Numbered from the stretch's first letter, positions 2,520-31,461 are shown. The stretch: 32,000 bases of DNA from Edaphobacter aggregans (GCF_003945235.1 NZ_RSDW01000001.1:1980001-2012000); one strand, 5' to 3'. Notes: generated by a model not told the origin, from the sequence alone. Numbers and translations: made by a program.

Positions 2520-3182
2520 ATGAAACTCTATTCGAAGGCTTCGGTCTTTGGAGCAGCATTACTTGCTTTAACGACCGCTTTTGCGTCAGCAGATACGATT
2601 CAACTAGGTAGTTACCAGACCGGTGGTTCAAGCCTCGGTAATGGAAACACTGCTGTTGCTTTTGTGGGATCGTCTACCACAACATTTGCGCTCTCCCCAG
2701 ATGGTGTGTGGGCTCCCGCAGGAGCCAACTCCGTCTGGGTCTCCAATAATGCAGGATCAGGCCCAGGAGGAAGCGTTGTCGAGCCTACCGCTATCTATTC
2801 GTACACCACCACCTTCAATACCTTATCCAGCAATTACACAGGCTCTATCTCGGTACTGGCAGATGACACAGCCGATGTGATCTTCAACGGTCACATGCTG
2901 CAAGCAGAGGGCAGTATCGGTGCCGACACTCATTGCGCTAGCGGACCTCCTAACTGCAGCGTTCCAACATTGATTACCCTTCCGAGTGGGGACTTCCTGA
3001 CTGGCCTAAACACACTGCAATTCGATGTACAGCAAGAGATCGCTCAAACAGGACTTGATTTCTATGGATCAGTCTCGTCGCCAGTCTCCACCTCAGCCAT
3101 TCCAGAGCCGGGTACATTGTTGCTCTTGGGTACCGGTCTTATAGGATCTGCATTCTTACTAATGCGCAAGAGACTGGCATAG
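2520..3182 (+). CDS. PEP-CTERM sorting domain-containing secreted protein
   Basis: Signal peptide MKLYSKASVFGAALLALTTAFASA, a Gly/Ser/Thr-rich body, and a C-terminal IPEPGTLLLLGTGLIGSAFLLMRKRLA (PEP motif + TM + basic tail). AGGAGG at 2508-2513 lies 6 nt before the ATG. G+C is visibly lower and A/T-ending codons are more frequent than in the flanking genes. Confidence 0.85.
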   Translation: MKLYSKASVFGAALLALTTAFASADTIQLGSYQTGGSSLGNGNTAVAFVGSSTTTFALSPDGVWAPAGANSVWVSNNAGSGPGGSVVEPTAIYSYTTTFNTLSSNYTGSISVLADDTADVIFNGHMLQAEGSIGADTHCASGPPNCSVPTLITLPSGDFLTGLNTLQFDVQQEIAQTGLDFYGSVSSPVSTSAIPEPGTLLLLGTGLIGSAFLLMRKRLA

Positions 3183-12564: not shown

Positions 12565-13611
12565 ATGGCCCCCACCGCCCAATCCGAAATCACCAACCCG
12601 GCCGCGACCCAGCTCAACGCTCTGCTCGACAAAGCCGCAATATTCCCCCTCAACGAAACCGGCTGGATCCGCGCCACCGGCGAAGACCGAGTCCGCTGGC
12701 TCAACGGCATGGTCACCAACTCCATTCAGGACCTCAAACCCGGCAAAGGCTCCTACAGCTTCGTTCTCAGCGTGCAAGGTCGCATCCAGGGCGACGCCTA
12801 CATCTACGCCGAACCCGACGCCCTCCTCCTCGAAACCGCTTCCGCGCAAGTTCCCGGCCTCATGGCCCTCCTCGACCGCTTCATCATCATGGACGACGTA
12901 GAGTTATCCGACGTCTCAGCCACCCGCTCCGGCCTATCCATCGCAGGCCCCGAAGCCGCAGCCCTCCTCGCAAAGCTCGGTCTAAACGTCGAACACCTCG
13001 CACCCCTGGACCTCCAAACCACCGAGTGGAACTCCACCCCCGTCACCATCATCCACGCTCACAGCCCACTCGTCCCCCGCTTCGAGCTCTGGGCCGACAC
13101 CGCAACCATCGCCTCCCTCTCGCAGGCCCTGCTCGCCGCCGGAGCCGTCACCACCGCCCCCGAGAGCCTCGAATACCTCCGCATCCTCGAAGGCACCCCG
13201 CTCTACGGCAAAGACATCCGCGACCGCGAGCTCCCTCAGGAGACCGCCCAGGCCCGCGCCCTGCACTTCAACAAGGGCTGCTACTTGGGTCAGGAGATCG
13301 TCGAGCGCATCCGTTCCCGCGGCAACGTACATCGCACCTTCAGCGCCTTCCGCCTCGAAGGAGATCTACCCCCGGCTGGATCGATGCTCGAAGCCGAAGG
13401 CAAACAAATCGGCGAACTAACCAGCACTGCCTCCATCCCGCTTCCATCAAATCCCGTGCAGCTCGCGCTAGGCTATGCACGCCGCGAAGCCTTGGACCGC
13501 GGCCTCCCGCTCACCTATTCCGGCGGCATCGCCATACCTATCGCCATCCCTTTTTCGCCCGCTGAAGCCCCAGGGCAATCACCAGCATCTGAATCTCCCG
13601 AAAGAGCCTAA
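12565..13611 (+). CDS. ygfZ: Folate-binding YgfZ/CAF17 family protein (GcvT-like aminomethyltransferase fold)
   Basis: GWIRATGEDRVRWLNGMVTNSI and the family signature FNKGCYLGQEIVERIRSRG. I take the ATG at 12565; the track start at 12439 would overlap the divergent upstream gene. Confidence 0.8.
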   Translation: MAPTAQSEITNPAATQLNALLDKAAIFPLNETGWIRATGEDRVRWLNGMVTNSIQDLKPGKGSYSFVLSVQGRIQGDAYIYAEPDALLLETASAQVPGLMALLDRFIIMDDVELSDVSATRSGLSIAGPEAAALLAKLGLNVEHLAPLDLQTTEWNSTPVTIIHAHSPLVPRFELWADTATIASLSQALLAAGAVTTAPESLEYLRILEGTPLYGKDIRDRELPQETAQARALHFNKGCYLGQEIVERIRSRGNVHRTFSAFRLEGDLPPAGSMLEAEGKQIGELTSTASIPLPSNPVQLALGYARREALDRGLPLTYSGGIAIPIAIPFSPAEAPGQSPASESPERA

Positions 13612-13613
13612 TT

Positions 13614-14240
13614 ATGTCCGAAAAGAACAAGCCCTTCGTCATCACCGACCGCCGCAAGTTCACCCTCGACGGCGAGCCCCGCCCCGACGCCGACCCATCC
13701 CCCGAGAAAGAAAGCCGCGAGCCCGCAGCAGCCGCGCCTCCGCCGGCACCCACTGCCATTCCCGAACCGCCCGCCGCACCACAAGCCGAAGAGCCGGAGC
13801 ACGACCTGCCCCCCGCGCCCACAGCCGAGCAGACCGAGCAGTCCCGCCGTGCCTACGAGATGACCGCCGAGCGCCTCGACACCGCGATCCGCGCTGCAAA
13901 CCCCGGCGCCGACCATCCCCCGGCCATGAGCTTCGACCAGCTCGTCCAGTCCGTCTACCTCACCGCCATGATGCAGCTCGGCGGGGCCACTCCCGAGGGC
14001 CAGCAGCCCCAGGTCGACCTCATGGGCGCGCGCCAAAGCATCGACATGCTGGGTGTCCTCGCTGAAAAAACCAAGGGCAACCTCACCCCAGACGAAGACC
14101 GCCTCCTCGAAAGCGCCCTCTTCGAACTCCGCATGGCCTTCCTCGAGATCACCCAGGCCCTCGCCCGCTCCGCCGCCGCCAAAGCCGGATCGCCCACAGG
14201 TGGCCGTCCAAACCCCGTCGGCCCGAGTATCGTTCGCTAA
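13614..14240 (+). CDS. DUF1844 domain-containing protein
   Basis: N-terminal KPFVITDRRKF, a Pro/Ala/Glu-rich linker, then FDQLVQSVYLTAMMQLGG...VDLMGARQSIDMLGVLAEKTKGNLTPDEDRLLESALFELRMAFLE. As I recall, this is the DUF1844 pattern. It starts 2 nt after the ygfZ-like stop. Confidence 0.7.
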   Translation: MSEKNKPFVITDRRKFTLDGEPRPDADPSPEKESREPAAAAPPPAPTAIPEPPAAPQAEEPEHDLPPAPTAEQTEQSRRAYEMTAERLDTAIRAANPGADHPPAMSFDQLVQSVYLTAMMQLGGATPEGQQPQVDLMGARQSIDMLGVLAEKTKGNLTPDEDRLLESALFELRMAFLEITQALARSAAAKAGSPTGGRPNPVGPSIVR

Positions 14241-14243
14241 ACG

Positions 14244-15059
14244 ATGGAGGCAACCCTCACCTTTCTCGGCACCGGAACCTCCATGGGCGTCCCCACGCTC
14301 GGTTGCGACTGCGCCGTCTGCACCTCCGCCGTCTCTCCCGGCGGAGACCCGCGCAACCGCCGCACCCGGCCCTCCATCCGCCTCGCCTACAACGACCACA
14401 TCGTCCTCATCGACACTGGCCCCGACTTCTACGCTCAGGCCATCCGCGAGAACCTCCGCCACGTCGACGCCGTCCTCTACACCCACGGCCACGCTGACCA
14501 CATCATGGGCTTCGACGACCTGCGCCCCCTCAGCTTCCACCACAAAGGCAACCTGCCCATCTACGCCGACGACCACACCGCCGCCACCATCGAGCGTGTC
14601 TTCGACTACACCTTCCGCACCGAAAACCGCCACCCCACCAGCGCCCGCGTCACCATCCACCGCATCGACCCCACCCCCGGCGCCGGCTTCGACCTCTTCG
14701 GAGCCTGTTTCCGCCGCATCCCCGTCACCCACGGCCGCCAGCAGATCACCGGCTACCGCTTCGGCAGCGCCGCCTACATCACCGACATGAGCGACATCCC
14801 GGACGAGAGTATCCCGCTCCTGCAAGACCTCGACGTCCTCATCCTCGACGCCCTGCGCCGCGACCCGCACTTCAGCCACTCGCACTTGGAAAAATCCATC
14901 GGCTTCGTCGAAAAACTAAAACCCCGCCGGGCCCTCTTCACCCACATGAGTCACGACCTCGACCACGCAGCCACCGAAGCCGAACTCCCACCCCACATCC
15001 GTCTGGCCTACGATGGCCAGCAGATCACCTTCGAGATTGCCGCGGAGAGTACTGCATGA
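14244..15059 (+). CDS. MBL-fold metallo-hydrolase (PhnP/GPMB-like)
   Basis: TFLGTGTSMGVPTLGCDCAVC, metal motif YTHGHADHIMGFDDL, and later H/D ligands (FTHMSHD). Confidence 0.8.
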   Translation: MEATLTFLGTGTSMGVPTLGCDCAVCTSAVSPGGDPRNRRTRPSIRLAYNDHIVLIDTGPDFYAQAIRENLRHVDAVLYTHGHADHIMGFDDLRPLSFHHKGNLPIYADDHTAATIERVFDYTFRTENRHPTSARVTIHRIDPTPGAGFDLFGACFRRIPVTHGRQQITGYRFGSAAYITDMSDIPDESIPLLQDLDVLILDALRRDPHFSHSHLEKSIGFVEKLKPRRALFTHMSHDLDHAATEAELPPHIRLAYDGQQITFEIAAESTA

Positions 15060-20860: not shown

Positions 20861-20957
20861 GATGTGGTGAGTGACCGCGCCCATCAGGACATTCAAGCCA
20901 AGCGCGACCCAAAGGAGAATCGCCGCGGCACAGTCAGATACCATCATACTTGATTCC

Positions 20958-21713
20958 ATGCCCCCCGAAAAGCGCACCCCTCGAATCCTCGGAGTGATCC
21001 CCGCCCGCCTCGCCTCCACGCGACTCCCCCGCAAAGTCCTCCGCAACATCGCCGGTCGCCCAATGCTTGCATGGGTTTACGAGGCCGCCTTGGCTTGCCC
21101 CCAACTCGACCAGGTCATCATCGCCACCGACTCCGACGAAGTCGCCGCCCTCTGCCATCAACAAAACTGGCCCGTCCAACTCACCTCGCCCGACCTCCCC
21201 AGCGGCACCGACCGCCTCCACGCCGTCTCCCAGCTCATCGACGCCGACATATACGTCAACATCCAGGGCGATGAACCCCTCCTCAAGCCCGAACACCTCA
21301 CCGCCCTCCTCCGCCCCTTCACCCGGCCCGAAGTCGAGGTCTCCACCCTAAAAGTCCGCTGCACCCCCGACAACATCAACAACCCCAACGCCGTAAAAGT
21401 AGTCACCGCCGCCGACGGTCGAGCCCTCTACTTCTCCCGCGCCACCATCCCCTACAACAGAGATCACGACCGCGACGGAACCACCCCCCAATACTGGAAG
21501 CACCTCGGCCTCTACGCCTACCGCAAAGCCGCCCTCCAGAGCTTCCCCACCCTTCCCCCCAGCACCCTCGAGCACACCGAGCGTCTCGAACAACTCCGCT
21601 TCCTCGAAAACAACATCCACATCCACGTCGAACCCACCGACCACGACACCATAGGCGTAGACACCGAAGAAGACCTCCAAAAAGTCGCGGCCATCCTTCT
21701 GCAACGGCGCTGA
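20958..21713 (+). CDS. kdsB: 3-deoxy-manno-octulosonate cytidylyltransferase (CMP-Kdo synthetase)
   Basis: ILGVIPARLASTRLPRKVL, GTDRL, VNIQGDEPL and HLGLYAYR. The ATG at 20958 is preferred; the track GTG at 20871 would abut the tRNA. Confidence 0.88.
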   Translation: MPPEKRTPRILGVIPARLASTRLPRKVLRNIAGRPMLAWVYEAALACPQLDQVIIATDSDEVAALCHQQNWPVQLTSPDLPSGTDRLHAVSQLIDADIYVNIQGDEPLLKPEHLTALLRPFTRPEVEVSTLKVRCTPDNINNPNAVKVVTAADGRALYFSRATIPYNRDHDRDGTTPQYWKHLGLYAYRKAALQSFPTLPPSTLEHTERLEQLRFLENNIHIHVEPTDHDTIGVDTEEDLQKVAAILLQRR

Positions 21714-21738
21714 TTTTTAGCTCAGTGCTTTTTTGTTT
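21707..21738 (+). terminator. Putative rho-independent terminator of kdsB
   Basis: gcgctga (21707-21713, includes the stop codon) pairs with tcagtgc (21722-21728; 7 bp with one G-U). It is followed by ttttttgtttg. Confidence 0.45.
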
Positions 21739-21768
21739 GTCATCCCCGCAGGAGATCTGCTTTTGCCG
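21737..21768. repeat. Dispersed intergenic repeat copy 2 (TTGTCATCCCCGCAGGAGATCTGCTTTTGCC)
   Basis: Shares TTGTCAT, GATCTG and TTTTGCC blocks with the copies at 1350-1436 and 21781-21824. Confidence 0.55.
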
Positions 21769-21780
21769 TTCTTGTTTTGC

Positions 21781-21824
21781 TTGTCATTACTGAGCCGAAG
21801 GCGAAGAACCCCCCGCATTTTGCC
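21781..21824. repeat. Dispersed intergenic repeat copy 3 (TTGTCATTACTGAGCCGAAGGCGAAGAACC...GCATTTTGCC)
   Basis: In tandem with copy 2, 13 nt downstream. It shares TTGTCAT, CTGAGC, CGAAG and TTTTGCC blocks with copy 1. Confidence 0.55.
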
Positions 21825-21954
21825 CGCACCGCCACAAATCCTCCATGGCGCGCCCACCCCAAAACCTGTCAAGCTCAAACATCAATCACCCCAAGCAAAA
21901 TCAACAACATACCATTGCTGATCCATTCCACCCAATCAGCTAAAATAGATATTA

Positions 21955-21989
21955 GGAAAGAGAAAAAGCCCCGGACACCAACCGGGGCT
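21955..21989 (-). terminator. Rho-independent terminator of the manC-pmm-HAD operon
   Basis: agccccgg (21967-21974) / ccggggct (21982-21989) form an 8-bp GC-rich stem with a 7-nt loop. On the - strand it is followed by tttttctcttt. It lies about 100 nt downstream of the HAD gene stop. Confidence 0.7.
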
Positions 21990-22090
21990 TTCCCTTTAAC
22001 CAGACCTGACCAAAACGAAGTCCAGACCTAAACATAATGAATCGAAGACTTTAGCACCGAAAGCACCCAGAGGGGGATACCCATGACCGA

Positions 22091-22756
22091 CTACGCCAAA
22101 GGAGTAAACCGCAATTCCAGCCCATCCCCCGCTACAGTAACCCCCAGCCTCTCCAGCGACTCAACCACCCAATCCGCCTCCGCCAACTCCTCAGCCGAGT
22201 GGGTCCCCAGCACTCCCAGCACCCGACACCCCGCAGCCACCCCAGCCCCTACCCCCGAAGGAGCATCCTCCACCACAATGCACTCCTCCGGCGAAAATCC
22301 AAGCAACCCAGCACCCCGGCGATACGGCTCCGGGTCAGGCTTCCCCCGCTCCACCATATCGGCACTAATCAGCCGAGCAGGAACCGGCAACCCAGCCGCC
22401 TCCAGCCGCCCCAGCAAAAGCCGCGTCGTAGCCGAAGTCACAATCGCCCACCGATCCAACGGAAGGCTCTCCATCAACTCCTTCACCCCGGGCAGAACCT
22501 TCAGATCCGCCGTGTCCTCCATCTCCATGTCTTCAATCACGCGAAGCCCCTCCTCCGCGTCGATGTCCGGCCTCAGACTCCGCACAATCTCAATCGCCCG
22601 CATTCCATGCGGAACCTCATACGTATCCGCGTTCGGAATGTCATACAGCTTCGCCCACCGCTGCCAGCACCGCACCACAGACCCGATGGAGCTGATCAGC
22701 ACCCCATCCATATCAAACAAAATTCCCTTCGTCTCAACCACAACCGGCTGACTCAA
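22091..22756 (-). CDS. HAD-superfamily hydrolase (sugar-phosphatase / beta-phosphoglucomutase-like, subfamily IA)
   Basis: Motif I ILFDMDGVLISS, motif II IVTSAT, motif III K (RGKPDPEPY), motif IV VVEDAPSGVGAGVAAG. The start overlaps the pmm stop by 4 nt. Confidence 0.8.
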   Translation of the reverse strand: MSQPVVVETKGILFDMDGVLISSIGSVVRCWQRWAKLYDIPNADTYEVPHGMRAIEIVRSLRPDIDAEEGLRVIEDMEMEDTADLKVLPGVKELMESLPLDRWAIVTSATTRLLLGRLEAAGLPVPARLISADMVERGKPDPEPYRRGAGLLGFSPEECIVVEDAPSGVGAGVAAGCRVLGVLGTHSAEELAEADWVVESLERLGVTVAGDGLELRFTPLA

Positions 22757-24195
22757 ACAGCACTCCCTTGCAATACAAACTGTTGCGCCGCCTCAAGCAC
22801 CTTGGCGACCGACTCCGTTGAACAACTCTCGCAATACACCCGCAGCAGTGGCTCCGTACCCGAAGCCCTCAGCAACAACCACGTCTCAGCAGCATTCGGC
22901 TTCGAACCGCAATCAGGATTCTCGAGGAAGAACTTAATGCCATCCATCGTCTCCACCCGCAGAACCTCCATCCCGGCAAAGTCCTTCACTCCAGCCTTCG
23001 CCCGGGCAATCGCAGACTGCTTCAACGCCTCATCAATATGCATATCCACGCGCCCATACTGGTGCTCGCCAAACTCCTCCTGCAGCGCCGCCACAAGCTC
23101 ACCCAGCGTCTTCTTCTCATCCGCCATCACATTGGCCAGCAGAAGCGAATTCAGTAACCCATCGCGCTCCGGAAGATGCCGGCTAATACCCACCCCACCC
23201 GACTCCTCGCCCCCAATCAAAATCTCCTTCTCCAGCATCAGGTCGCACACATACTTGAACCCGATCCCATGCTCATTCAGCTTCCGCCCATACTTTGCCG
23301 CAATGCGGTCGATCATCTTCGTCGTATTGAACGCCCGCGTCACTTCACCAGGCCACTTCTTCCGCTCCAGCAACCAATACATCAGGATGGAAAACACCTT
23401 ATGCGCATCGACAACGTTCCCATGCTCATCCACCGCGCCAATGCGATCCGCATCGCCATCCGTAATCAACCCGGCATCGCACTTCTCCGCAACCACAGCA
23501 AGCTGCGTCTCACGAATATGCGGCAGAATCGGCTCCGGATTGATCCCCGGAAACAGCGGATTCACCTCATTACGAATCTCCACAAACGGAATCCCAGCCC
23601 GCGTAAAGATCCCCGCAATCACCCCACGCCCAGCCCCATACATCACATCGATCAAAAACTTATATCCCGACTTACGAATCGCATCGAGATCGACAAACCG
23701 CTCAATCGCGGCAATGTAATCCGGATTGAAGTCCACCTCTTCGATCTTCGCTTTCGTCGCACTCACCGGCAGCGGCTTCTCCAGATAACTTTCAATCGAA
23801 GCCATGATCGAAGGCTTGCCTGACCCGCCATAACTAGCCTTGTACTTAACCCCGTTCCACTCCGCAGGATTGTGGCTCGACGTAATCATCACGCCACCAG
23901 CAGCCTTCCTCTCCCGCACCGCATACGACAGTGCAGGTGTCGGTGTAATCCCCGAAGCAAACGCCACAGGAATCCCCGCTCCAGCCAACACCTCAGCCAC
24001 AACCCGCGCAAACGACCGCGACCCAAACCGCGTGTCATACCCAATACAAACGCCCGCCGAAGCATCCTCATGCGCCAGCACATAGTTCGCAATCGCCGCC
24101 GCGGCCACCCTCACATTGGCATAGGTAAAGTCGTCAGCGATAATCCCCCGCCACCCATCGGTCCCAAACTTCACCACCGTCTTCGTCTCAACCAT
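22753..24195 (-). CDS. Phosphomannomutase/phosphoglucomutase (alpha-D-phosphohexomutase family)
   Basis: FGTDGWRG, active-site loop TSSHNPAEWNG, Mg loop TDGDADRIGAV, sugar loop GGEESGG and phosphate loop LRASGTEPLLRVY. Confidence 0.88.
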   Translation of the reverse strand: MVETKTVVKFGTDGWRGIIADDFTYANVRVAAAAIANYVLAHEDASAGVCIGYDTRFGSRSFARVVAEVLAGAGIPVAFASGITPTPALSYAVRERKAAGGVMITSSHNPAEWNGVKYKASYGGSGKPSIMASIESYLEKPLPVSATKAKIEEVDFNPDYIAAIERFVDLDAIRKSGYKFLIDVMYGAGRGVIAGIFTRAGIPFVEIRNEVNPLFPGINPEPILPHIRETQLAVVAEKCDAGLITDGDADRIGAVDEHGNVVDAHKVFSILMYWLLERKKWPGEVTRAFNTTKMIDRIAAKYGRKLNEHGIGFKYVCDLMLEKEILIGGEESGGVGISRHLPERDGLLNSLLLANVMADEKKTLGELVAALQEEFGEHQYGRVDMHIDEALKQSAIARAKAGVKDFAGMEVLRVETMDGIKFFLENPDCGSKPNAAETWLLLRASGTEPLLRVYCESCSTESVAKVLEAAQQFVLQGSAV

Positions 24196-24224
24196 ATTTT
24201 GCTTTTCTGCTCCGTATTCAGCGG

Positions 24225-25385
24225 CTAGATAAGATCTTCTCTGCCCTTGGTCTTCAGTTCTGCAACCACCTTGCCCACATCCTGCGACCGCTCGCGCGTC
24301 GTAATCAGCAAAGCATCCCCGGTCTGCACCACCACTAGATCGCTCACGCCCACCAACGCAATCACCTTACCCGGAGCATAAACATAGTTCCCGCACGAAT
24401 CGATCGAGATCGTCAGCGGATCTTGCCCATCGATCACATTGGCGATCGACACCATATCCGGCGGACACGCTGCCACATGTTCATGCAGCGCCGACCAGCA
24501 CCCTAGATCGTTCCACGCAAAATCACCCGGCAGACAATAAATCCCGGAGTTCATCTCACCCTTGGCCGACCGGGGCTCCAGCACCGCATAATCGATGCTG
24601 ATGTTCTCGCACTGCGGATACTCCTCGGCAAACACCCGCTCAAACTCCGCCGTCCCATACGCCGCGGCAATCTTCTCCAGCAGCGGAGCCATCGCCGGCC
24701 GAAACTCCCGTATCGCCCCAGCAAGCGTCCGCGCACTCCACAGAAAAATCCCGCCGTTCCAGGCATAATTTCCCGAAGCAACAAACTCCTCCGCCCGCGC
24801 GCGATCCGGCTTCTCCGTAAACCGCTTCACCCGCCGCACTTCGATCCCACTGTCAGCCACCGCAGGATCATCCACCACTCCACCCAGCTCGATATACCCA
24901 TAACCCGTCTCAGCCCGCGCCGGAGGCACACCCAACACCACGACCTTGTCCCCACTCGCAGCCAACGCCACGCCCGCTCGCACCACCTCCGCAAACCGAG
25001 CCGTGTCCTTAATCGCATGGTCCGAAGGAAAGATCCCAATCACCGTCTCCGGCGCAGTCCTCTCCAGCAAAAACGCAGCCAGCGCACACGCAGGAGCCGT
25101 ATTTCTCGCAGCCGGCTCACTCAGAATCCGCTCCCGAGGCACCTCCGGCAACTGCTCCCCGATCACATCATCCAGCAAATCATTCGTGATCACCCAAACA
25201 TCCGACGCATCTGCCAGCGGCAACAGACGATCCAGCGTCTGCTGAATCATCGTGCGCTGCCCATCCAGCGCCAGCACCTGCTTCGCCTTGGCCTTACGAC
25301 TCCGTGGCCAAAACCGCGTCCCACTCCCTCCTGCAAGAATCACAGGAGCAAACCGCACGTCAGATTTACTGCTTCCCATTGGCAT
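24225..25385 (-). CDS. manC: Mannose-1-phosphate guanylyltransferase
   Basis: ILAGGSGTRFWPRSR pyrophosphorylase signature, FTEKPD and NGGIFLW. The length (386 aa) fits a transferase without the cupin isomerase domain. Confidence 0.85.
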   Translation of the reverse strand: MPMGSSKSDVRFAPVILAGGSGTRFWPRSRKAKAKQVLALDGQRTMIQQTLDRLLPLADASDVWVITNDLLDDVIGEQLPEVPRERILSEPAARNTAPACALAAFLLERTAPETVIGIFPSDHAIKDTARFAEVVRAGVALAASGDKVVVLGVPPARAETGYGYIELGGVVDDPAVADSGIEVRRVKRFTEKPDRARAEEFVASGNYAWNGGIFLWSARTLAGAIREFRPAMAPLLEKIAAAYGTAEFERVFAEEYPQCENISIDYAVLEPRSAKGEMNSGIYCLPGDFAWNDLGCWSALHEHVAACPPDMVSIANVIDGQDPLTISIDSCGNYVYAPGKVIALVGVSDLVVVQTGDALLITTRERSQDVGKVVAELKTKGREDLI

Positions 25386-25452: not shown

Positions 25453-26646
25453 CTAGCCCAGCGTAGCGAAGTACTCTCGCATCCGCTTCACACCCTCATC
25501 CACAACATCGTGCGACACAGCATATGACAGCCGAATATGCTCGCTAGTCCCGAACGCCTCGCCCGGAACCACAACCACATGCGCCTCGCTCAACAACTTC
25601 GCCGCCAAGTCCGTCGCCGACTTCACGCCGCCCTTGCCGATAAAGTTCTTCACATTCGGATACACATAAAACGCCCCCTGAGGCATCGTGCAAGTCAGCC
25701 CCGGAATCGTCTCAAAGCCCGTCAGAATCTGGTCGCGCAGCTTGATGTAATCCGCACGCATCTCTCCGACGCAATCCTGCGGCCCACTCACCGCCGCAAT
25801 CGAAGCCCGCTGCACCATGCTCGCCGTATTCGACGTGCTCTGCGACTGCAGCTTGCTCATCGCCGCAATAATCGGCTTCGGCCCAAGAGCAAACCCCGCT
25901 CTCCACCCCGTCATCGCATACGTCTTCGACAGCGACCCCAGCACAACCACATGCTCCTTGCAATCCGTGAACGACCCACCGCTCACAAGCTGCCCGGTGA
26001 AGTTCAGATACACATAGCACTCATCCAGCAGCACATAAATCTCGCGCTTATGCGCCAGCCGAACAATCGCCTCCAGATCCTCAGGCGAAACCACCGCGCC
26101 CGAAGGATTCGACGGCGTATTCAAAATAATCGCCTTCGTCTTCGGAGTAATCGCAGCCTCAATCATCTTCGCCGTAATGCGAAAGTTCTCCGACTCCTGG
26201 CTCTCCACCGGAACCACCACACCGCCCGCATACTGAATGATGTCCTTGAACGACACCCAGTACGGTACCGGCAGAATCACCTCGTCGCCATGATCGACCA
26301 GCACCTGGATCGCATTGAACAGCGCCAACTTACCGCCCGTCGTAAACACACACTCGTCCGGCGTGTAGTCCGACCCAAAATCACAAGCATGACGATCCAC
26401 AATCGCCCGCCGGACCTCCGGAATACCCGCGACATTCGTATAGCGGGTAAAGTTCTTCTCGATCGCCTCAATCGCCGCGTCCTTGATGTGCCGCGGAGTA
26501 GCAAAGTGAGGTTCACCCGCGCCAAAGTCCGCCAGGTTCACACCTTCTGACTTCAACTTCAGCGCCGCCGCCGTGATCGCCATCGTCGCCGAAACTTCAA
26601 TGCGGCCGATGCGGTCCGCAAATATCTTGGTTGCCGTTGTGCTCAT
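25453..26646 (-). CDS. Pyridoxal-phosphate-dependent aminotransferase, class I (aspartate aminotransferase-like)
   Basis: 397 aa. The PLP-lysine context is SLSKTYAMTGWRAGF; NPSGAV and PYWVSF are also present. GAGG lies 2 nt upstream of the ATG. Confidence 0.88.
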   Translation of the reverse strand: MSTTATKIFADRIGRIEVSATMAITAAALKLKSEGVNLADFGAGEPHFATPRHIKDAAIEAIEKNFTRYTNVAGIPEVRRAIVDRHACDFGSDYTPDECVFTTGGKLALFNAIQVLVDHGDEVILPVPYWVSFKDIIQYAGGVVVPVESQESENFRITAKMIEAAITPKTKAIILNTPSNPSGAVVSPEDLEAIVRLAHKREIYVLLDECYVYLNFTGQLVSGGSFTDCKEHVVVLGSLSKTYAMTGWRAGFALGPKPIIAAMSKLQSQSTSNTASMVQRASIAAVSGPQDCVGEMRADYIKLRDQILTGFETIPGLTCTMPQGAFYVYPNVKNFIGKGGVKSATDLAAKLLSEAHVVVVPGEAFGTSEHIRLSYAVSHDVVDEGVKRMREYFATLG

Positions 26647-26709: not shown

Positions 26710-27492
26710 CTATCTGCCAATCAGCCGCAGAATCTGACCCGCAGCATCGGCAACATCGGTCCGGCACCCAGCGTAACAAGTGGCACCCGCCACCGCATGT
26801 TGGAATACCCTCACCAAATCTGGCGATTCCGCCAAAACATGAGGCGTGTTCCGCAATAGGGTCAGCAATCCTTCGCTTTGAGGCATCGCCGCCACACTCC
26901 AGGTACATTCAGGCCGATACTCCAGCGCCAAAACCCAGCCAACCGGCGCCGGCGCATCCCCAATCGAAGCATTGCATTCGCCCGGCAGCACCGGGAATTG
27001 CTCAGGGCAGCCATTCCGCAGCAACAAAGGCCGAGGATATGGGTGCACCCGCCCCTCGGAATCGATCAGCGCATACTCATCGGAAAAATAGGTAGCGCCC
27101 CGCCGCAACAGCTCTGCCACCAGCGACGATTTTCCCGAATGCGTGACCCCCGGCAGCAGCAACACCCGTTCGCCCCACAGAACGGCGCCCGCATGAACGG
27201 CGTGCAGCGTCGTCAGGTGCTGGATCACAGCCTCGTCCAACACCCTGATGAGGTCCGGCACCAGGCTGATCGCTTGACCAGCCGATGCCACCACCGCATC
27301 GTCAACTGACAACTGAAATTGATCCGAAACCCGAACTAGGCGGATGGAGATATCAGGCTTCTCCGCGCCGCCAACCAATCGCGGTAGCGAAGGAAAAACA
27401 TAGCGTTCTAGGATGGCATACGTTTCAAGGCACTCCGCCGCCACTTGAATATGGCAGCCAAAAGCGCGAACCTCAAAACCGAGAGTGGGCAT
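26710..27492 (-). CDS. HPr kinase/phosphorylase-related P-loop kinase (HprK C-terminal-domain-like)
   Basis: VHAGAVLWGERVLLLPGVTHSGKSSLVAELLRRGATYFSDEYALID aligns by eye with the HprK catalytic domain (VHGVLV..G.GVLI.G.SGVGKSE.ALEL..RGH.L.ADD). The Walker A GVTHSGKS is at 27127-27150. GAGG lies 4 nt upstream of the ATG. Confidence 0.7.
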   Translation of the reverse strand: MPTLGFEVRAFGCHIQVAAECLETYAILERYVFPSLPRLVGGAEKPDISIRLVRVSDQFQLSVDDAVVASAGQAISLVPDLIRVLDEAVIQHLTTLHAVHAGAVLWGERVLLLPGVTHSGKSSLVAELLRRGATYFSDEYALIDSEGRVHPYPRPLLLRNGCPEQFPVLPGECNASIGDAPAPVGWVLALEYRPECTWSVAAMPQSEGLLTLLRNTPHVLAESPDLVRVFQHAVAGATCYAGCRTDVADAAGQILRLIGR

Positions 27493-27506
27493 AGCCTCGC
27501 GTCAGT

Positions 27507-27532
27507 AATGTCTGTCCAGAAAAACAGACATT
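27507..27532 (-). promoter_or_regulatory. Intercistronic RNA hairpin just upstream of the kinase ribosome-binding site
   Basis: aatgtctgt (27507-27515) is the perfect reverse complement of acagacatt (27524-27532), with an 8-nt loop. On the mRNA strand it ends 14 nt before the kinase AUG. Confidence 0.5.
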
Positions 27533-27645
27533 CATAATCCTGCACACAGCGATCGGAGCAAGATGGCTTGGAGCAGATGGCTCGATTGCGAATAAGCCGA
27601 GGGATGCAAAGAAGACGTTCTTGTCTCTGCACCCACTCAAAATGT

Positions 27646-28092
27646 TCAGCTATGCGGCTTCGGAACTGGCACAGGTGTGGGTGGGGGCGGAGGCGTGGGC
27701 GTCGGACGTATAACCGAAGACGCTTTTTGCGCGTAGGCTCGTTGGTCTGCAACAGATAACGCCACGACGAGCGGCAGCGCGGCAGCGCTCACCGTTCCGA
27801 TGAATTCGCGACGGGTCGCCTTTGAGGCCCCCCATGTCTTCACCAGTTTCTTGTCGTTCAGTTGCAGAATCGCCTCTTCTGCCAGTTCTTCATTTACCGC
27901 TGGGTCGAACGAGCGCTGCATGCCTTCTGTCACTCTGGCGAGTGTCGTCGGATCACTGCATGCGTCCCAGGCTGCGCCGGCCATCGCGTTCAATGCGAAA
28001 ACCGTCTCGTTTTTAGCGTCGACAATAACTTTTGAACCGTCGGGAAGTTGATTGATTACCAAGGCATCTGAATTGGTGCGTTCTACCTGCAT
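27646..28092 (-). CDS. PqqD-family (RRE-like) domain protein fused to an internal twin-arginine/TM segment and a Pro-rich C-terminal tail
   Basis: GAGG lies 7 nt upstream of the ATG. Residues ~8-84 fit the PqqD pattern (VIVDAKNETVFALNAMAGAAWDACSDPTTLARVTEGMQRSFDPAVNEELAEEAILQLNDKKLV). TRREFIG follows at 27796-27816, then the hydrophobic TVSAAALPLVVALSVA, then AYA-Q, then the tail QKASSVIRPTPTPPPPPTPVPVPKPHS. Confidence 0.7.
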   Translation of the reverse strand: MQVERTNSDALVINQLPDGSKVIVDAKNETVFALNAMAGAAWDACSDPTTLARVTEGMQRSFDPAVNEELAEEAILQLNDKKLVKTWGASKATRREFIGTVSAAALPLVVALSVADQRAYAQKASSVIRPTPTPPPPPTPVPVPKPHS

Positions 28093-28352
28093 ATACTGAC
28101 CTCTTTTTTTGGAGTCTCAGCAAGGACGGGCCCACTCTCGGAATTCCGAAAGTGTACGCCCGCATGGTTATTTTGTGGCGGATTCTTTAGTAACCTGATG
28201 TATTTTTCTCACTCCCCCTGCAACGCCTTGCGGGGAGCGCCAATTCCGTGTAACCTCCTCTCTTCCAAGACATGGATCGCGATAGCGCTTTGCACGAGTC
28301 AAAGTGCAAGCTGCAACATATTGCGACATATGCAGCGAAGCGGAGGGGACGA

Positions 28353-29498
28353 ATGCAAGCCGATTGCGAGTCTTGCGAACTGCTGCTCCGTGCAATTGCC
28401 CAACCGGCCAATGCAGAGCAAATTCAGCGCGCTGCTGTTAAAGTTCGCGACTGGGATTCGGTCCTCAGGTTGGCGCACGAGCACCGTGTGTCCTCGATGC
28501 TTTTCTCGCGACTCGCAAACATGGTTCCCGCGGTCCCGCTGATCGTGCAGAACCGCCTTCGCGCCGAGTACGACAGCAACATGTTTCACAATCTCGCGAA
28601 TGCAGTGGAATTGCTTGCCGTACTCAAAGTACTCGAACACGAGATGATTCCGGCCATGCCGTTTAAGGGTGTCGTGCTGGGAGCGTCCATCTACCACGAC
28701 CCTACGACGCGCCCCGCCGGCGATCTGGATCTGCTCATCCACTACAGGCATCTCAAGCCAGCCATGGCTATTCTCCTCGAACGAGGATACGAACTGAAAA
28801 CTCTCGCGCGTGCCGATGGAATCCCGTTCGATCCGAACTACACCTACGAATACCGTTTCGAACGGAAAACTGACGGAATGATATTGGAGCTTGGCTGGAG
28901 ACTTGAGCTTGCCCAGCCAAAATTCAAACGCGATCTCGGTCTCGATTGGGTATGGCCAAGCCGGCGAACCACCATGCTGGCAGGTGCCGAAGTTCCAGAC
29001 ATGAGCCCCGAGATCACCTTGCTGGTGCTTTGTCTGCATGGGGGCAAGCACGCGTGGTCGCGGCTCATCTGGATCTGTGACGTCGCGCAGCTACTGGCTT
29101 CGTCTCCCGGCCTCGATTGGAAAGAAGTCGTCCACGAAGCGAAGAAGTCAGGACTATGCCGCACGCTCGCCTTGGGTGTATTGCTTGCGCATCAAGTCGC
29201 GGGCGCCACAGTTCCTCCGACTGTCCTGCGGCGCTTTGAAGCGGACACGACCGCACGCAACTTGGCGCAACATTTCCAGCAGAATTTGTTTGCCGCGCCG
29301 GGCATCACACCCATGGGCCGCATTCCTTACACCGTCCAGTTGCTCGACTTCCGCGATCAAGTCAGGTGGCTCTTGTCCTTTGACTTCCTGCGGCCAAATG
29401 AGAGAGATCGAGCAGCCCTCCAACTACCGAAGCCGCTCCACGCCCTCTACTATCTGATTCGCCCCTTCCGCATCTTTTGGGATAGATCGGCAAGGTAA
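28353..29498 (+). CDS. Nucleotidyltransferase family protein (PF14907 / NTP_transf_5-like, pol-beta superfamily)
   Basis: FKGVVLGASIYHDPTTRPAGDLDLLI (G..x..DxD; Asp codons at 28722-28730) and an N-terminal ELLLRAI...DWDSVLRLAHEHRVSSMLF helical region, which I recall as typical of this family. The ATG at 28353 has GGAGG 6 nt upstream and is preferred over the track start at 28272. Confidence 0.7.
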   Translation: MQADCESCELLLRAIAQPANAEQIQRAAVKVRDWDSVLRLAHEHRVSSMLFSRLANMVPAVPLIVQNRLRAEYDSNMFHNLANAVELLAVLKVLEHEMIPAMPFKGVVLGASIYHDPTTRPAGDLDLLIHYRHLKPAMAILLERGYELKTLARADGIPFDPNYTYEYRFERKTDGMILELGWRLELAQPKFKRDLGLDWVWPSRRTTMLAGAEVPDMSPEITLLVLCLHGGKHAWSRLIWICDVAQLLASSPGLDWKEVVHEAKKSGLCRTLALGVLLAHQVAGATVPPTVLRRFEADTTARNLAQHFQQNLFAAPGITPMGRIPYTVQLLDFRDQVRWLLSFDFLRPNERDRAALQLPKPLHALYYLIRPFRIFWDRSAR

Positions 29499-29714: not shown

Positions 29715-30209
29715 TTAAACCCGGCCCGGCACCTTAGCCTTCAACCGCTCCACCACCAGCGGCGGCACCAGCGCCGTCACATCTCCGCCCAACTGAAACA
29801 CCCCTTTGATCAGCCGCGAACTCACATACGTGTACTTCTCCGCCGGCATCATGAAAAGCGTCTCCAGCTCCGGGTCGAGCTTCCGGTTCATCATCGCCAT
29901 CTGAAACTCATACTCATAGTCCGAGATAGCCCGAATTCCCCGCAGCACAGCCTTGGCACCCTGCTGTCGCGCAAAGTCCACCAGCAATCCATCAAAGGTC
30001 GTCACCGTCACATTGCCGAAACCCCGTGTAGCCTCGGCGATCATCTCCTCGCGCTCGGGAACGGTAAACAGCGGCGTCCCCTTCTCCGCATTCCGCAGGA
30101 TCGCCACCACAAGGTAGTCGACGATCTTCGACCCCCGCGCAATCAGGTCGAGGTGCCCATTTGTCAGCGGGTCAAACGTCCCAGGATAGATTGCCTTTAC
30201 CGTATGCAT
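29715..30209 (-). CDS. coaD: Pantetheine-phosphate adenylyltransferase
   Basis: 164 aa with IYPGTFDPLTNGHLDLI (T/HxGH), RAISDYEYEFQMA and SSRLIK. Confidence 0.92.
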   Translation of the reverse strand: MHTVKAIYPGTFDPLTNGHLDLIARGSKIVDYLVVAILRNAEKGTPLFTVPEREEMIAEATRGFGNVTVTTFDGLLVDFARQQGAKAVLRGIRAISDYEYEFQMAMMNRKLDPELETLFMMPAEKYTYVSSRLIKGVFQLGGDVTALVPPLVVERLKAKVPGRV

Positions 30210-30267: not shown

Positions 30268-31461
30268 TCATCCCTGCCGCCCCGCCCCAGACGCCAGCTT
30301 GCCTTTCAGGCTCAGAAAATACTCCTCAAAGTACCGCCTCGACAGAAAACAAACCAGCACGCACGCCATAAAGACAATCACAAAACGAGCAAGCCCCGCC
30401 TGAAGCGACATTACCGTCGGCCGCACAAATCTCGACCGATCGAGCAACTTGTCATAGAGGTCGAACAGGAAGAGATGAAACATATACATCCCATAGCTGA
30501 TGTAACCCAAAAAGCGGAGCGGCGTCGTCCACCACAGCACCTGCGGTCCATCTCCCCACAAAAGCGCCACTATCACCAATCCGGCGAACAGCACATCGAA
30601 CGGCACCGCCTGAAATGCAGCCCCAGCCGGTGTCGCACGATGAAGCAGGTGCATCGACACGGCAATCCCAAGCAAGACCACACCCAGCCCCAGCAGCCCC
30701 ACAGTCAGCCGTCGCACATTGCGTAGCGTAGCGAACCGGGACCGCAGAAAGATTGCGATCAGCCCACCGATCGCCAGGTTATCGGCAATCAGCCACGTCA
30801 TCATGTGGGGGTCGCCCAAAGGTGGCCGTCCCATCTGCGACAGGAATCGCAGCACCGGGCAAACAACCAACATGGCCATGCAAACATACGCCAGCCGCCT
30901 CAATGTAAGGCGCCGAACTACCCACGGCCACACCAGATAGAACTGTTCCTCCACCGCCAGCGACCAGAACGGCCTATAGATACTGCCGCCAACGGGAAAA
31001 TACGAACTCAAATTCGCCATATTGAACAGGCACAAACCCACATAGCCCCACGTGATGTGAACCACCCTGGACAACCACACCAGTGTCACGACATAGAGCG
31101 GCAGAATGCGCAATGTCCGCCGCAGGTAGAAGTTCTTCCCATAGTTCTTCCGCCCGCGCGAGTCCAGCAGAATCCCCGTAATCAGAAACCCTGAAAGCAC
31201 AAAGAAAAGATTGACGCCCAGCCAGCCGAACGTAAAAGCATGAGACAGCCTTTCCAGCGCCGCACTCTCACCGCCACGTGCGCCAGGATTCCAGTACAGG
31301 CCGTGATAGAGCACGACCGACAGAACGGCGATCCCACGCAAGGCATCCAGCCCAGGCATCTCTCGCTTCAACAGAGGGGACCGCCCATCGCATGACCGTC
31401 GCGACTGGGAAGCCTCTGTAGAAGCCTTTGTACCCTCTAACGTATGCAAAGCAATGGTCAT
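30268..31461 (-). CDS. Acyltransferase family 3 (OafA/YrhL-like) integral membrane protein
   Basis: LDALRGIAVLSVVLYH N-terminal signature with about 10 hydrophobic helices. The start is either ATG 31461 or ATG 31359. Confidence 0.8.
   Translation of the reverse strand: MTIALHTLEGTKASTEASQSRRSCDGRSPLLKREMPGLDALRGIAVLSVVLYHGLYWNPGARGGESAALERLSHAFTFGWLGVNLFFVLSGFLITGILLDSRGRKNYGKNFYLRRTLRILPLYVVTLVWLSRVVHITWGYVGLCLFNMANLSSYFPVGGSIYRPFWSLAVEEQFYLVWPWVVRRLTLRRLAYVCMAMLVVCPVLRFLSQMGRPPLGDPHMMTWLIADNLAIGGLIAIFLRSRFATLRNVRRLTVGLLGLGVVLLGIAVSMHLLHRATPAGAAFQAVPFDVLFAGLVIVALLWGDGPQVLWWTTPLRFLGYISYGMYMFHLFLFDLYDKLLDRSRFVRPTVMSLQAGLARFVIVFMACVLVCFLSRRYFEEYFLSLKGKLASGAGRQG

Follow-up and report, generated by a model that had tools for sequence, protein, structure and literature searches.

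A gene trio of lasso-tailoring families without lasso machinery in Edaphobacter aggregans: a candidate cassette for peptide modification and export

Gene clusters for phosphorylated lasso peptides, among them those of paeninodin (PadeK), of Bradymonas (BsfK/BsfB1/BsfN) and the PsmK/PsmN cluster, encode together an HprK-like kinase, a PqqD-like protein (B1) that is a recognition element (RRE) for peptides that are synthesised by the ribosome and modified after translation (RiPPs), and a nucleotidyltransferase (NTase)-fold protein of family PF14907. BsfB1 strongly accelerates phosphorylation of Ser3 of the core peptide by BsfK (PMC10368454). In pseudomycoidin, PsmK phosphorylates a Ser, and the addition of one or two hexoses onto the phosphate requires PsmN, a protein of the PF14907 type (PMC6993621; reviewed in PMC8498205). 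Here we describe three adjacent genes of the same families, found at positions 26710-29498 of a 32,000 nt stretch of the Edaphobacter aggregans genome (GCF_003945235.1, NZ_RSDW01000001.1:1980001-2012000; the window). We suggest that they form a self-contained cassette for RRE-guided peptide modification and export, which employs the lasso-tailoring families without the lasso machinery, and assign this reading a probability of about 55%.

The first gene (EDE15_1683, 26710-27492, minus strand) encodes a 260 aa P-loop kinase-like protein of the HprK/phosphoenolpyruvate carboxykinase (PEPCK) fold, and the open reading frame (ORF) call is 100% identical to an E. aggregans protein. The second gene (27646-28092, likewise minus strand) lies upstream of the kinase gene at a distance of 153 nt; its product of 148 aa matches PF05402 (PqqD) and is a putative self-recognising precursor. 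The third gene (28353-29498, plus strand) encodes a 381 aa protein assigned to PF14907 (NTP_transf_5) by a hidden Markov model (HMM) match. Our ORF calls agree with the coordinates, strands and 153 nt spacing of the original prediction. The longest ORF of the PF14907 gene starts at 28272 and would give 408 aa; the ATG at 28353 is the probable start, and about one third of the longest ORFs of homologues start at the equivalent position. No Asn-synthetase-like lasso cyclase, transglutaminase-like leader peptidase or ABC (ATP-binding cassette) exporter was found among the ORFs scanned in the 32 kb window, as had been predicted. The trio shares with lasso clusters the PqqD-like RRE (B1). It differs from them in that cyclase, B2 peptidase, ABC exporter and a separate small precursor are all missing, and in an RRE that is fused in cis to the presumed substrate.

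Relatives were collected by a scan of one genome per GTDB species and were present in at least 133 species. From these, 79 loci were kept, all from Acidobacteriota, and all their ORFs, with flanks of 10 kb, were searched with the family HMMs. The PqqD-fusion gene adjoins the kinase gene at nearly all of these loci. The PF14907 gene was found at 69 of the 79, usually divergent upstream, so that most loci show the divergent arrangement of fusion and PF14907 gene seen in E. aggregans; at four loci (L055, L069, L070, L075) it is located downstream on the same strand. Three homologous loci on long contigs (L002-L004) carry the same trio among entirely different neighbours. These data support the view that the trio is a conserved, self-contained unit. 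Clustering of the flank ORFs revealed no recurrent lasso C, B2, ABC or twin-arginine translocation (Tat) genes within 10 kb of the 79 loci, and no B2-type peptidase is present in the annotated neighbourhoods L002-L004 and L087-L090. The proposal that the trio stands alone, made from the window only, is supported by these neighbourhoods. That three unrelated genes came to be neighbours by chance, or that they form an island of anti-phage defence, would fit the position between housekeeping genes and a composition that deviates like that of an inserted element, but both are hardly credible considering the near-universal co-occurrence at 79 loci with different flanks, and none of the trio proteins matched a PADLOC defence-system model.

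The most informative member of the trio is the 148 aa protein. Its match to PF05402 (26.5 bits) exceeds the gathering score of 23.4, and residues 1-87 (27832-28092, minus strand) form a PqqD-like winged-helix RRE domain according to an AlphaFold2 (AF2) model and its PDB matches. The best of these matches are lasso B1 proteins with bound leader peptides, with 5v1v (TbiB1; target-normalised template modelling score (TM-score) 0.71) followed by 5v1u and 6jx3; the RRE domains of TigE, CteB, ThcOx and TruD come next. We found 867 homologues of the fusion protein, and the 120 listed have lengths of 128-223 aa. Of 206 unique homologues, 200 share a common layout: the RRE is followed by a Ser/Gly-rich linker, the motif (S/T/N)RRxF(I/L), an uncharged stretch with a Pro, the motif (D/E)Q(R/K)A(Y/H/F)A, four residues and a Ser.

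In the E. aggregans protein this internal segment, which resembles a Tat signal, comprises residues 93-121 (TRREFIGTVSAAALPLVVALSVADQRAYA; 27730-27816, minus strand), with the RR pair, a hydrophobic region including the invariant P107, a basic c-region and an AxA site. The pattern RR-(19-27 aa)-Q[RK]A[YHF]A is present in 200 of 206 unique homologues; 198 of these 200 have Ala at -3 and 194 have Ala at -1. The uncharged stretch has a median length of 20 aa and a mean Kyte-Doolittle hydropathy of 1.9. R94, R95, P107 and Q117 are invariant, as is a P-L-V motif, and the position at -2 is occupied by Y, H or F. The likeness to Tat signal peptides includes (S/T)RRxF(I/L), a region of moderate hydrophobicity, a c-region with a basic residue and AxA, and the motif SRRxVLKK of Pyrinomonadaceae homologues is even nearer to the consensus. 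The difference is in the placement, which is not N-terminal but internal, from residue 93 on and behind a folded domain, and use of the Tat route is a prediction. We know of no Tat substrate with a fused RRE.

The AxA site is followed at +5 by Ser126 (27715-27717, minus strand), a candidate phospho-acceptor. A Ser is found at this position in 199 of the 200 sequences, where it is the last conserved position ahead of a hypervariable tail, and in 198 of 199 sequences its distance from Pro107 is 19 residues. The predicted exported tail or core peptide of the E. aggregans protein (residues 122-148, QKASSVIRPTPTPPPPPTPVPVPKPHS; 27649-27729, minus strand) is of a Pro-rich type. The computed monoisotopic mass of this tail as a free peptide is 2808.565 Da, to which a phosphate would add 79.966 Da and a phosphate plus hexose 242.019 Da; the pyroglutamate form would have 2791.539 Da. 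Among the homologues, the part following the Ser is hypervariable in sequence and length (1-60 residues, median 21). The types include Pro-rich tails (QKASS-VIRPTPTPPPPPTPVPVPKPHS in the window), tails with a Cys-x(n)-Cys loop, Pro/Ser/Gly stretches that end in GWLLGLLGL and, in divergent loci, poly-Thr. At three loci (L020:8485-8979, L024:8572-9150 and L043:7414-7887) the tails contain unbroken runs of about 20-36 Pro. Such long Pro runs are unusual in bacterial proteins, and their translation should lean heavily on elongation factor P.

Two further fusion genes have unusual structures. In Tunturiibacter gelidiferens M8UP28 (L002/L010) the fusion gene (L002:7396-7875) diverges about 12 residues past the RR in a frameshift-like manner and has no PLVV...AxA-Ser, and a gene for an IS110-family transposase (L002:9423-10436) is located just downstream of the kinase gene; this cassette may be decaying, or the assembly may contain an error. 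In a distant relative (L084:1761-2167) the PqqD ORF ends with ...SRRA* and is overlapped by a 36 aa ORF (MIQRVAMVGAVTIGAPIVSVVAPTPAQTVPPDPGPD) that resembles the hydrophobic segment and tail. Either RRE and precursor are naturally split here into a gene each, or the metagenome contig contains a frameshift. We also considered an internal start that would give a separate small Tat pre-peptide and rejected it, as the commonest in-frame start (GTG at -11 from the RR) is present in only 29 of 90 genes.

It had been suggested that the kinase and its partner act on the tail of the PqqD-fusion protein itself. At 16 of the 79 loci, two to four tandem copies of the fusion gene with different tail types are present beside one kinase gene and one NTase gene. 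Such tandem copies with diversified tails show the behaviour of precursors, not of chaperones. A conserved recognition part that is followed by an unalignable core, with multiple paralogues beside the enzymes, is also what RiPP precursors display. The gaps between fusion and kinase gene measure -14 to 324 nt among the 79 loci, with the exception of four loci with 1.3-1.7 kb. A conserved precursor ORF hidden in this gap was considered as well; since the gap sizes vary over this range and offer no space to a conserved small ORF, and no obvious similarity was seen across four gaps compared, it is excluded. The prediction that there is no separate small precursor is in agreement with these gap sizes.

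The four large gaps arise because a family 2 glycosyltransferase (GT2), with or without GT25, either forms the N-terminal part of a fusion with the kinase or has a separate gene. Several of the top kinase homologues in an exhaustive HMM search, which collected 9,250 clusters (50% identity) of the kinase superfamily at E <= 1e-3, are such glycosyltransferase-kinase fusions. GT2 (+/- GT25)-HprK-like kinase fusions of 549-819 aa are represented by P0246, P0250, P0258, P0259, P0283, L069:6522-8981 and L007:7611-9704, and to our knowledge this domain architecture has not been described. Strongly Thr-rich tails are found at three loci (L055, L069, L075), and at each of them a GT2 is fused or directly adjacent; L075 has in addition a UDP-GlcNAc 2-epimerase. 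For the remaining 85 tails the median Thr fraction is 0.05. In this small sample, tail composition tracks the enzyme set. The glycosyltransferase links, like the Tat-like signal and the invariant Ser at +5, go beyond what had been predicted. Considering the tandem paralogues, the co-variation of tails and glycosyltransferases and the gap sizes, the view that the enzymes probably act on the fusion protein's own tail is well supported by these comparisons of sequences.

The fusion protein could instead be a membrane-anchored RRE chaperone that presents a separately encoded precursor, for instance of a lasso peptide or another RiPP from a distant part of the genome, to kinase and NTase at the membrane, with the tail serving as an extracytoplasmic spacer. 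RRE domains in all characterised systems bind a separate leader, as in 5v1v and 6jx3, the top structural matches, and lasso clusters with a kinase do occur in Acidobacteriaceae (PMC10368454). We nevertheless consider this unlikely: the 10 kb around the 79 loci contain neither a conserved small ORF nor a gene for lasso C or B2, tandem duplication of whole genes with diversified tails is how a substrate behaves, and an inert tail would explain neither the constant spacing between the invariant Ser and the Pro nor the co-variation of tails with glycosyltransferases.

Both enzymes of the trio carry the residues expected from the lasso systems. In the kinase, the catalytic motif (27076-27195, minus strand) consists of H100, the P-loop G115-V-T-H-S-G-K-S122 (27127-27150), which is the GVTHSGKS sequence noted in the original prediction, and the acidic pair D138-E139 (27076-27081). 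H100, G115, H118, G120, K121, S122, D138 and E139 are invariant among 30 family members. Mutagenesis of BsfK identified H148, G163, K169, S170, D186 and D187 as important residues, while G166 tolerates a change to Ala (PMC10368454). The spacing of H148-G163-G166-G168-K169-S170-D186-D187 is identical in the E. aggregans kinase, with His118 in place of G166 and Glu139 in place of D187. The PF14907 protein scores 184 bits (gathering score 31.2), which leaves no doubt about its family; the PqqD domain exceeds its own gathering score by a small margin. Its KG...GDLDL motif was also located: K132-G133 and G150-D151-x-D153 (numbering of the 408 aa ORF; GDLDL at 28719-28733) are conserved, with K132-G133 and D151-x-D153 present in at least 95% of 63 homologues. 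D151 and D153 are equivalent to D134 and D136 of PsmN, and a D134A/D136A mutation inactivates PsmN (PMC6993621).

Kinship of the trio to lasso tailoring genes, as had been proposed, is apparent in the B1-like RRE fold, the motif spacing of the BsfK/PsmK type and the DxD of PsmN; the lasso precedent for RRE-accelerated phosphorylation of a Ser near the start of the core provides a further parallel. A twin-arginine segment and AxA take the place of the lasso leader motif YxxPxL ... T-2, and the candidate acceptor is at +5, whereas lasso acceptors are at the C-terminus or at +3.

Following these precedents, we propose that the 148 aa protein would be recognition element and substrate in one, and that its RRE would recruit the HprK-like kinase in the way that BsfK is served by the lasso B1 protein. 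Ser126 would then be phosphorylated by the kinase, at a site that is placed at a fixed 19 residues past the invariant Pro; the invariance of this Ser makes it the candidate acceptor. The PF14907 enzyme would then decorate the phosphoserine with a hexose or a nucleotide-linked group, in the manner of PsmN in pseudomycoidin, and in some relatives the fused or adjacent glycosyltransferases may extend or add glycans. The RR/hydrophobic/(D/E)Q(R/K)AYA segment would act as an internal Tat-type signal, through which the modified tail QKASSVIRPTPTPPPPPTPVPVPKPHS is translocated post-translationally. Modification in the cytoplasm would have to be finished before export, a requirement that could account for a signal of the Tat type and not of the Sec type. 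From the thylakoid Tat literature it is known that Tat signals are inserted as loops and that extensions at their N-terminus are tolerated. Insertion as a loop would leave the N-terminal RRE in the cytoplasm, and the RRE domain would remain there when signal peptidase releases the tail after AYA. Cys-loop and poly-Thr tails and the 6-Cys mini-domain described below are typical of extracytoplasmic peptides and favour export.

Several results weigh against this reading. The assignment of Ser126 as acceptor comes from its invariance, and S20, within the invariant PDGS motif of the RRE domain, is conserved too. A folded domain of 87 aa precedes the signal-like segment, the first residue of which is 93; this placement is atypical for both Tat and Sec and would fail predictors that depend on position. 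AF2 predicted residues 91-129 of the fusion protein with low confidence, and the models neither support nor exclude that the RRE docks the signal-like segment in cis. The PF14907 gene is missing despite ample flanks in at least four loci (L024, L028, L068, L077), from which it follows that the enzyme is not strictly required or is encoded elsewhere there. The link between glycosyltransferases and Thr-rich tails is seen at only about five loci. The chemistry that we propose is framed by lasso precedents. Finally, sequence searches gave little for the kinase: a Pfam scan of the window protein had no match, PF07475 (Hpr_kinase_C) included, in disagreement with what had been expected from its HprK-like core; TIGR04352 matched locally (residues 89-160) with 47.1 bits at a cutoff of 200; and a sequence profile of the kinase family compared with PDB sequences gave only insignificant matches to the P-loop of KaiC.

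Since these searches were insignificant, a comparison of folds was needed. The AF2 model of the kinase has a predicted local distance difference test score (pLDDT) of 91.8, and all 50 PDB matches listed by Foldseek are either ATP-PEPCK or HPr kinase/phosphorylase (HprK/P). ATP-PEPCK was found with an E value of 9e-6 and a query-normalised TM-score of about 0.57, and HprK/P with an E value of about 2e-3 (structures 1ko7, 1kkm, 1knx, 2qmh, 3tqf and 1jb1). On the predicted structure, membership in the HprK/PEPCK fold is settled. Relatives of the kinase show weak, sub-threshold matches to Hpr_kinase_C. All 83 sampled relatives match TIGR04352 (HprK_rel_A; E <= 0.001, best 6e-24), more than match any other model, and 17 of the 83 also match canonical HPr(Ser) kinase. 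By these scores, the E. aggregans protein belongs to a distinct clade of HprK-like kinases outside TIGR04352. With HprK/P itself it shares the fold, the P-loop and the acidic pair; it differs in having no significant Hpr_kinase_C match, no HPr or phosphotransferase system (PTS) context and another N-terminal domain, and PEPCK scores better over the full length.

The founding member of this fold is regulatory, and the kinase carries the UniRef label Hpr(Ser) kinase/phosphatase. This raises the question whether it reversibly phosphorylates a small membrane protein with a PqqD domain as a regulatory switch that reports on metabolism or on the envelope, as HprK/P does with HPr, in which case no natural product would be made; the invariant S20 in the RRE domain would be in agreement with such a role. 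A signalling protein would, however, hardly be expected to have hypervariable tails and tandem paralogues. Moreover, the sole characterised relative of the PF14907 partner decorates a phosphopeptide, the glycosyltransferase fusions indicate biosynthesis, and neither an HPr/PTS gene nor a transcription factor recurs in the flanks. We therefore regard a phospho-switch as very unlikely.

Other systems pair an HprK-like kinase with a PqqD-family protein. One of them is the HPr-rel-A system (HprK-related kinase A, TIGR04352, and PqqD_rel_X, TIGR04353), a placeholder name that had been mentioned for similar gene sets. The kinases fall far below the TIGR04352 cutoff of 200 (47 for the window, 62 for Pyrinomonadaceae), and with TIGR04353 (cutoff 35) the PqqD protein of the window gave no match at E <= 0.1 and a Pyrinomonadaceae homologue 20.1 bits. 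The trio differs further by the fused signal and tail, and placement in HPr-rel-A does not hold. The SynChlorMet (SCM) cassettes show the same pairing (ScmC HprK-like, ScmD PqqD-like), and some relatives of the trio give weak, sub-threshold matches to ScmC/ScmD. SCM cassettes are defined by radical S-adenosylmethionine (radical-SAM)/SPASM enzymes; the trio comes without such an enzyme. Export signals in place of classical leaders are known from the bufferins, which are RiPP precursors (PMC11626156).

The architecture persists in relatives with about 30% kinase identity. At locus L085, a gene for RRE-RR-PLV-QQRAYA-GGAKS-tail precedes the kinase gene and a PF14907-like gene. In L086 and in a family of more than 2,000 fusion proteins, the named members of which are from Pyrinomonadaceae, SRRxVLKK is followed by a hydrophobic region, an ALA site, a Ser and a 6-Cys mini-domain that is conserved. 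At the Pyrinomonadaceae loci (L087:1-10445, L089:1-10445, L088 and L090) the genes for kinase, fusion protein and PF14907 protein are the last three of a polysaccharide operon that includes Wzz/BY-kinase, epimerases, GT2, several GT4, SIS and cytidylyltransferase, PfkB and WecA-like genes; there is an overlap of 8 nt between the WecA-like gene and the kinase gene.

This operon structure, with the trio as the 3' end of a Wzz/glycosyltransferase/epimerase/WecA-like operon, suggests another function, namely assembly of an envelope glycan. The fusion protein would stay anchored and uncleaved, and its juxtamembrane phosphoserine would be primer or anchor for a sugar or polysaccharide via a phosphodiester. 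The GT2 (+/- GT25)-kinase fusions of several homologues, the resemblance of poly-Thr and Pro-rich tails to glycosylated stalks, and the tail of L075, which continues about 100 residues past its poly-Thr linker and possibly forms a folded domain, are consistent with this, and so is the presence of ManC, PMM, KdsB and Acyl_transf_3 genes near the trio in the window. Such a role as protein primer or anchor is attractive for the Pyrinomonadaceae clade, but for the system as a whole it seems rather unlikely. The AxA site and the basic c-region are conserved like a cleavage site, and many tails are very short (minimum 1, median 21 residues after the Ser), Cys-looped or hydrophobic and not stalk-like. 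Homologues of the glycan genes are found within 10 kb at only 1 of the 79 Acidobacteriaceae-type loci, and a general link to polysaccharide or sugar-nucleotide genes was rejected on these grounds and kept as specific for the one clade. The first steps, phosphorylation and then transfer of a sugar, are common to glycan assembly and to the modification and export cassette that we prefer.

The glycan-related genes of the window (20871-25385 and 30268-31461) encode KdsB, a HAD phosphatase, PMM/PGM, a ManC-like mannose-1-phosphate guanylyltransferase and an Acyl_transf_3 O-acyltransferase. As such homologues occur within 10 kb at 1 of the 79 other loci, these sugar-nucleotide and glycan neighbours of the trio are probably coincidental.

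If the trio is indeed a modification and export cassette, there is a realistic chance that it represents a new RiPP-like class of exported phospho(glyco)peptides. In a more detailed version, which we put forward only tentatively, the precursor of this class would carry its RRE in cis and use an internal twin-arginine signal as leader. The RRE would recruit kinase and decorating enzyme to a fixed Ser and hold the signal until the peptide is modified, like a built-in Tat proofreading chaperone, and the phospho(glyco)peptide would then be exported and cleaved. The literature that we searched, which covered few papers from subscription journals, contains no description of the trio or of an RRE fused to its own substrate, but only lasso papers and general RRE tools. 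If our reading is right, the cassette would be the first example known to us in which an RRE and the substrate that it serves are parts of one protein, and in which a RiPP-like leader is at the same time an internal Tat-type signal.

Acidobacteriota belong to the most abundant bacteria of soils, and as far as we know their secreted peptide chemistry is almost unknown. If our view is true, the kinase/NTase tailoring pair would be the core of an independent and widespread pathway, separate from lasso peptides: this clade is present in at least 133 species, the sister clade in Pyrinomonadaceae has more than 2,000 fusion proteins, and the wider kinase superfamily comprises 9,250 clusters. Thousands of acidobacterial genes for a "PqqD family protein" would then encode precursors of secreted modified peptides, which are possibly antimicrobial or surface-active. 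The cassette would escape current RiPP tools, since these search for an enzyme that defines the class and for a precursor that is short and separate; a rule for genome mining would be a PqqD domain, an RR/hydrophobic/AxA segment, a Ser and a variable tail, encoded beside an HprK-like gene. The cassette would also provide a defined substrate for finding out what PF14907 enzymes do, a question left by the work on pseudomycoidin.

A universal fourth partner of the trio was sought among the flanking genes and rejected. The commonest flanks encode secreted immunoglobulin (Ig)-like repeat proteins, which occur at 26 loci of one sub-clade; a DAO oxidoreductase is found at 18 loci, a beta-carbonic anhydrase at 8 and a NusG-like protein at 7. 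At about 26 of the 79 loci (one sub-clade; L056-L081 and others) genes on the opposite strand for large secreted ASH/Cep192/PapD-like Ig-domain repeat proteins bracket the trio. Examples are L074:10814-16124 and L079:10822-16519, where further ones are also present about 5 kb upstream of the kinase gene. One of the bracketing genes often ends 28-260 nt past the kinase gene. This arrangement could mean that the neighbourhoods have a common ancestor, or that the trio is functionally linked to surface proteins.

In E. aggregans, the trio is flanked by a gene of the aspartate aminotransferase family (25453-26646) and by the CoaD gene (29715-30209). Co-transcription of the kinase gene with the aminotransferase gene, which had been considered possible, has no functional meaning, because the flanking genes differ at all other loci. 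The intergenic region between the divergent fusion and PF14907 genes (28093-28352) is presumably a shared promoter region, as judged from the gene arrangement; around the trio, neither terminators nor a sigma-70 promoter consensus exceeded the shuffled expectation.

The whole window (1-32000) has an unusually strong strand-specific skew at third codon positions, with minus-strand genes rich in G3 and plus-strand genes rich in C3. The PqqD-fusion and NTase genes had been reported to break this pattern, and the skew values place both outside the ranges of the window: the third-position G-C skew is +0.08 for the PqqD gene versus +0.31 to +0.73 in other minus-strand genes, and -0.09 for the NTase gene versus -0.25 to -0.71 in plus-strand genes. 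This fits a fairly recent arrival or inversion of the cassette. A gene for a PEP-CTERM protein (2520-3182; GC 0.51, weak skew of -0.25) deviates as the trio does and may be another recent acquisition. The remaining genes of the window are ordinary envelope and housekeeping genes (Mur ligase, LD-carboxypeptidase, DapF, PBP1, S41 peptidase), along with KdsB, PMM, ManC, RibF, a YgfZ-like protein and an MBL-fold hydrolase. The region 13001-15000 has a GC content of 0.66-0.67, compared to about 0.58 elsewhere, and spans a DUF1844 gene (13614-14240, plus strand) and the MBL-fold gene (14244-15059, plus strand). An antisense ORF in this GC-rich stretch (13608-14885, minus strand) has no family match and is probably spurious.

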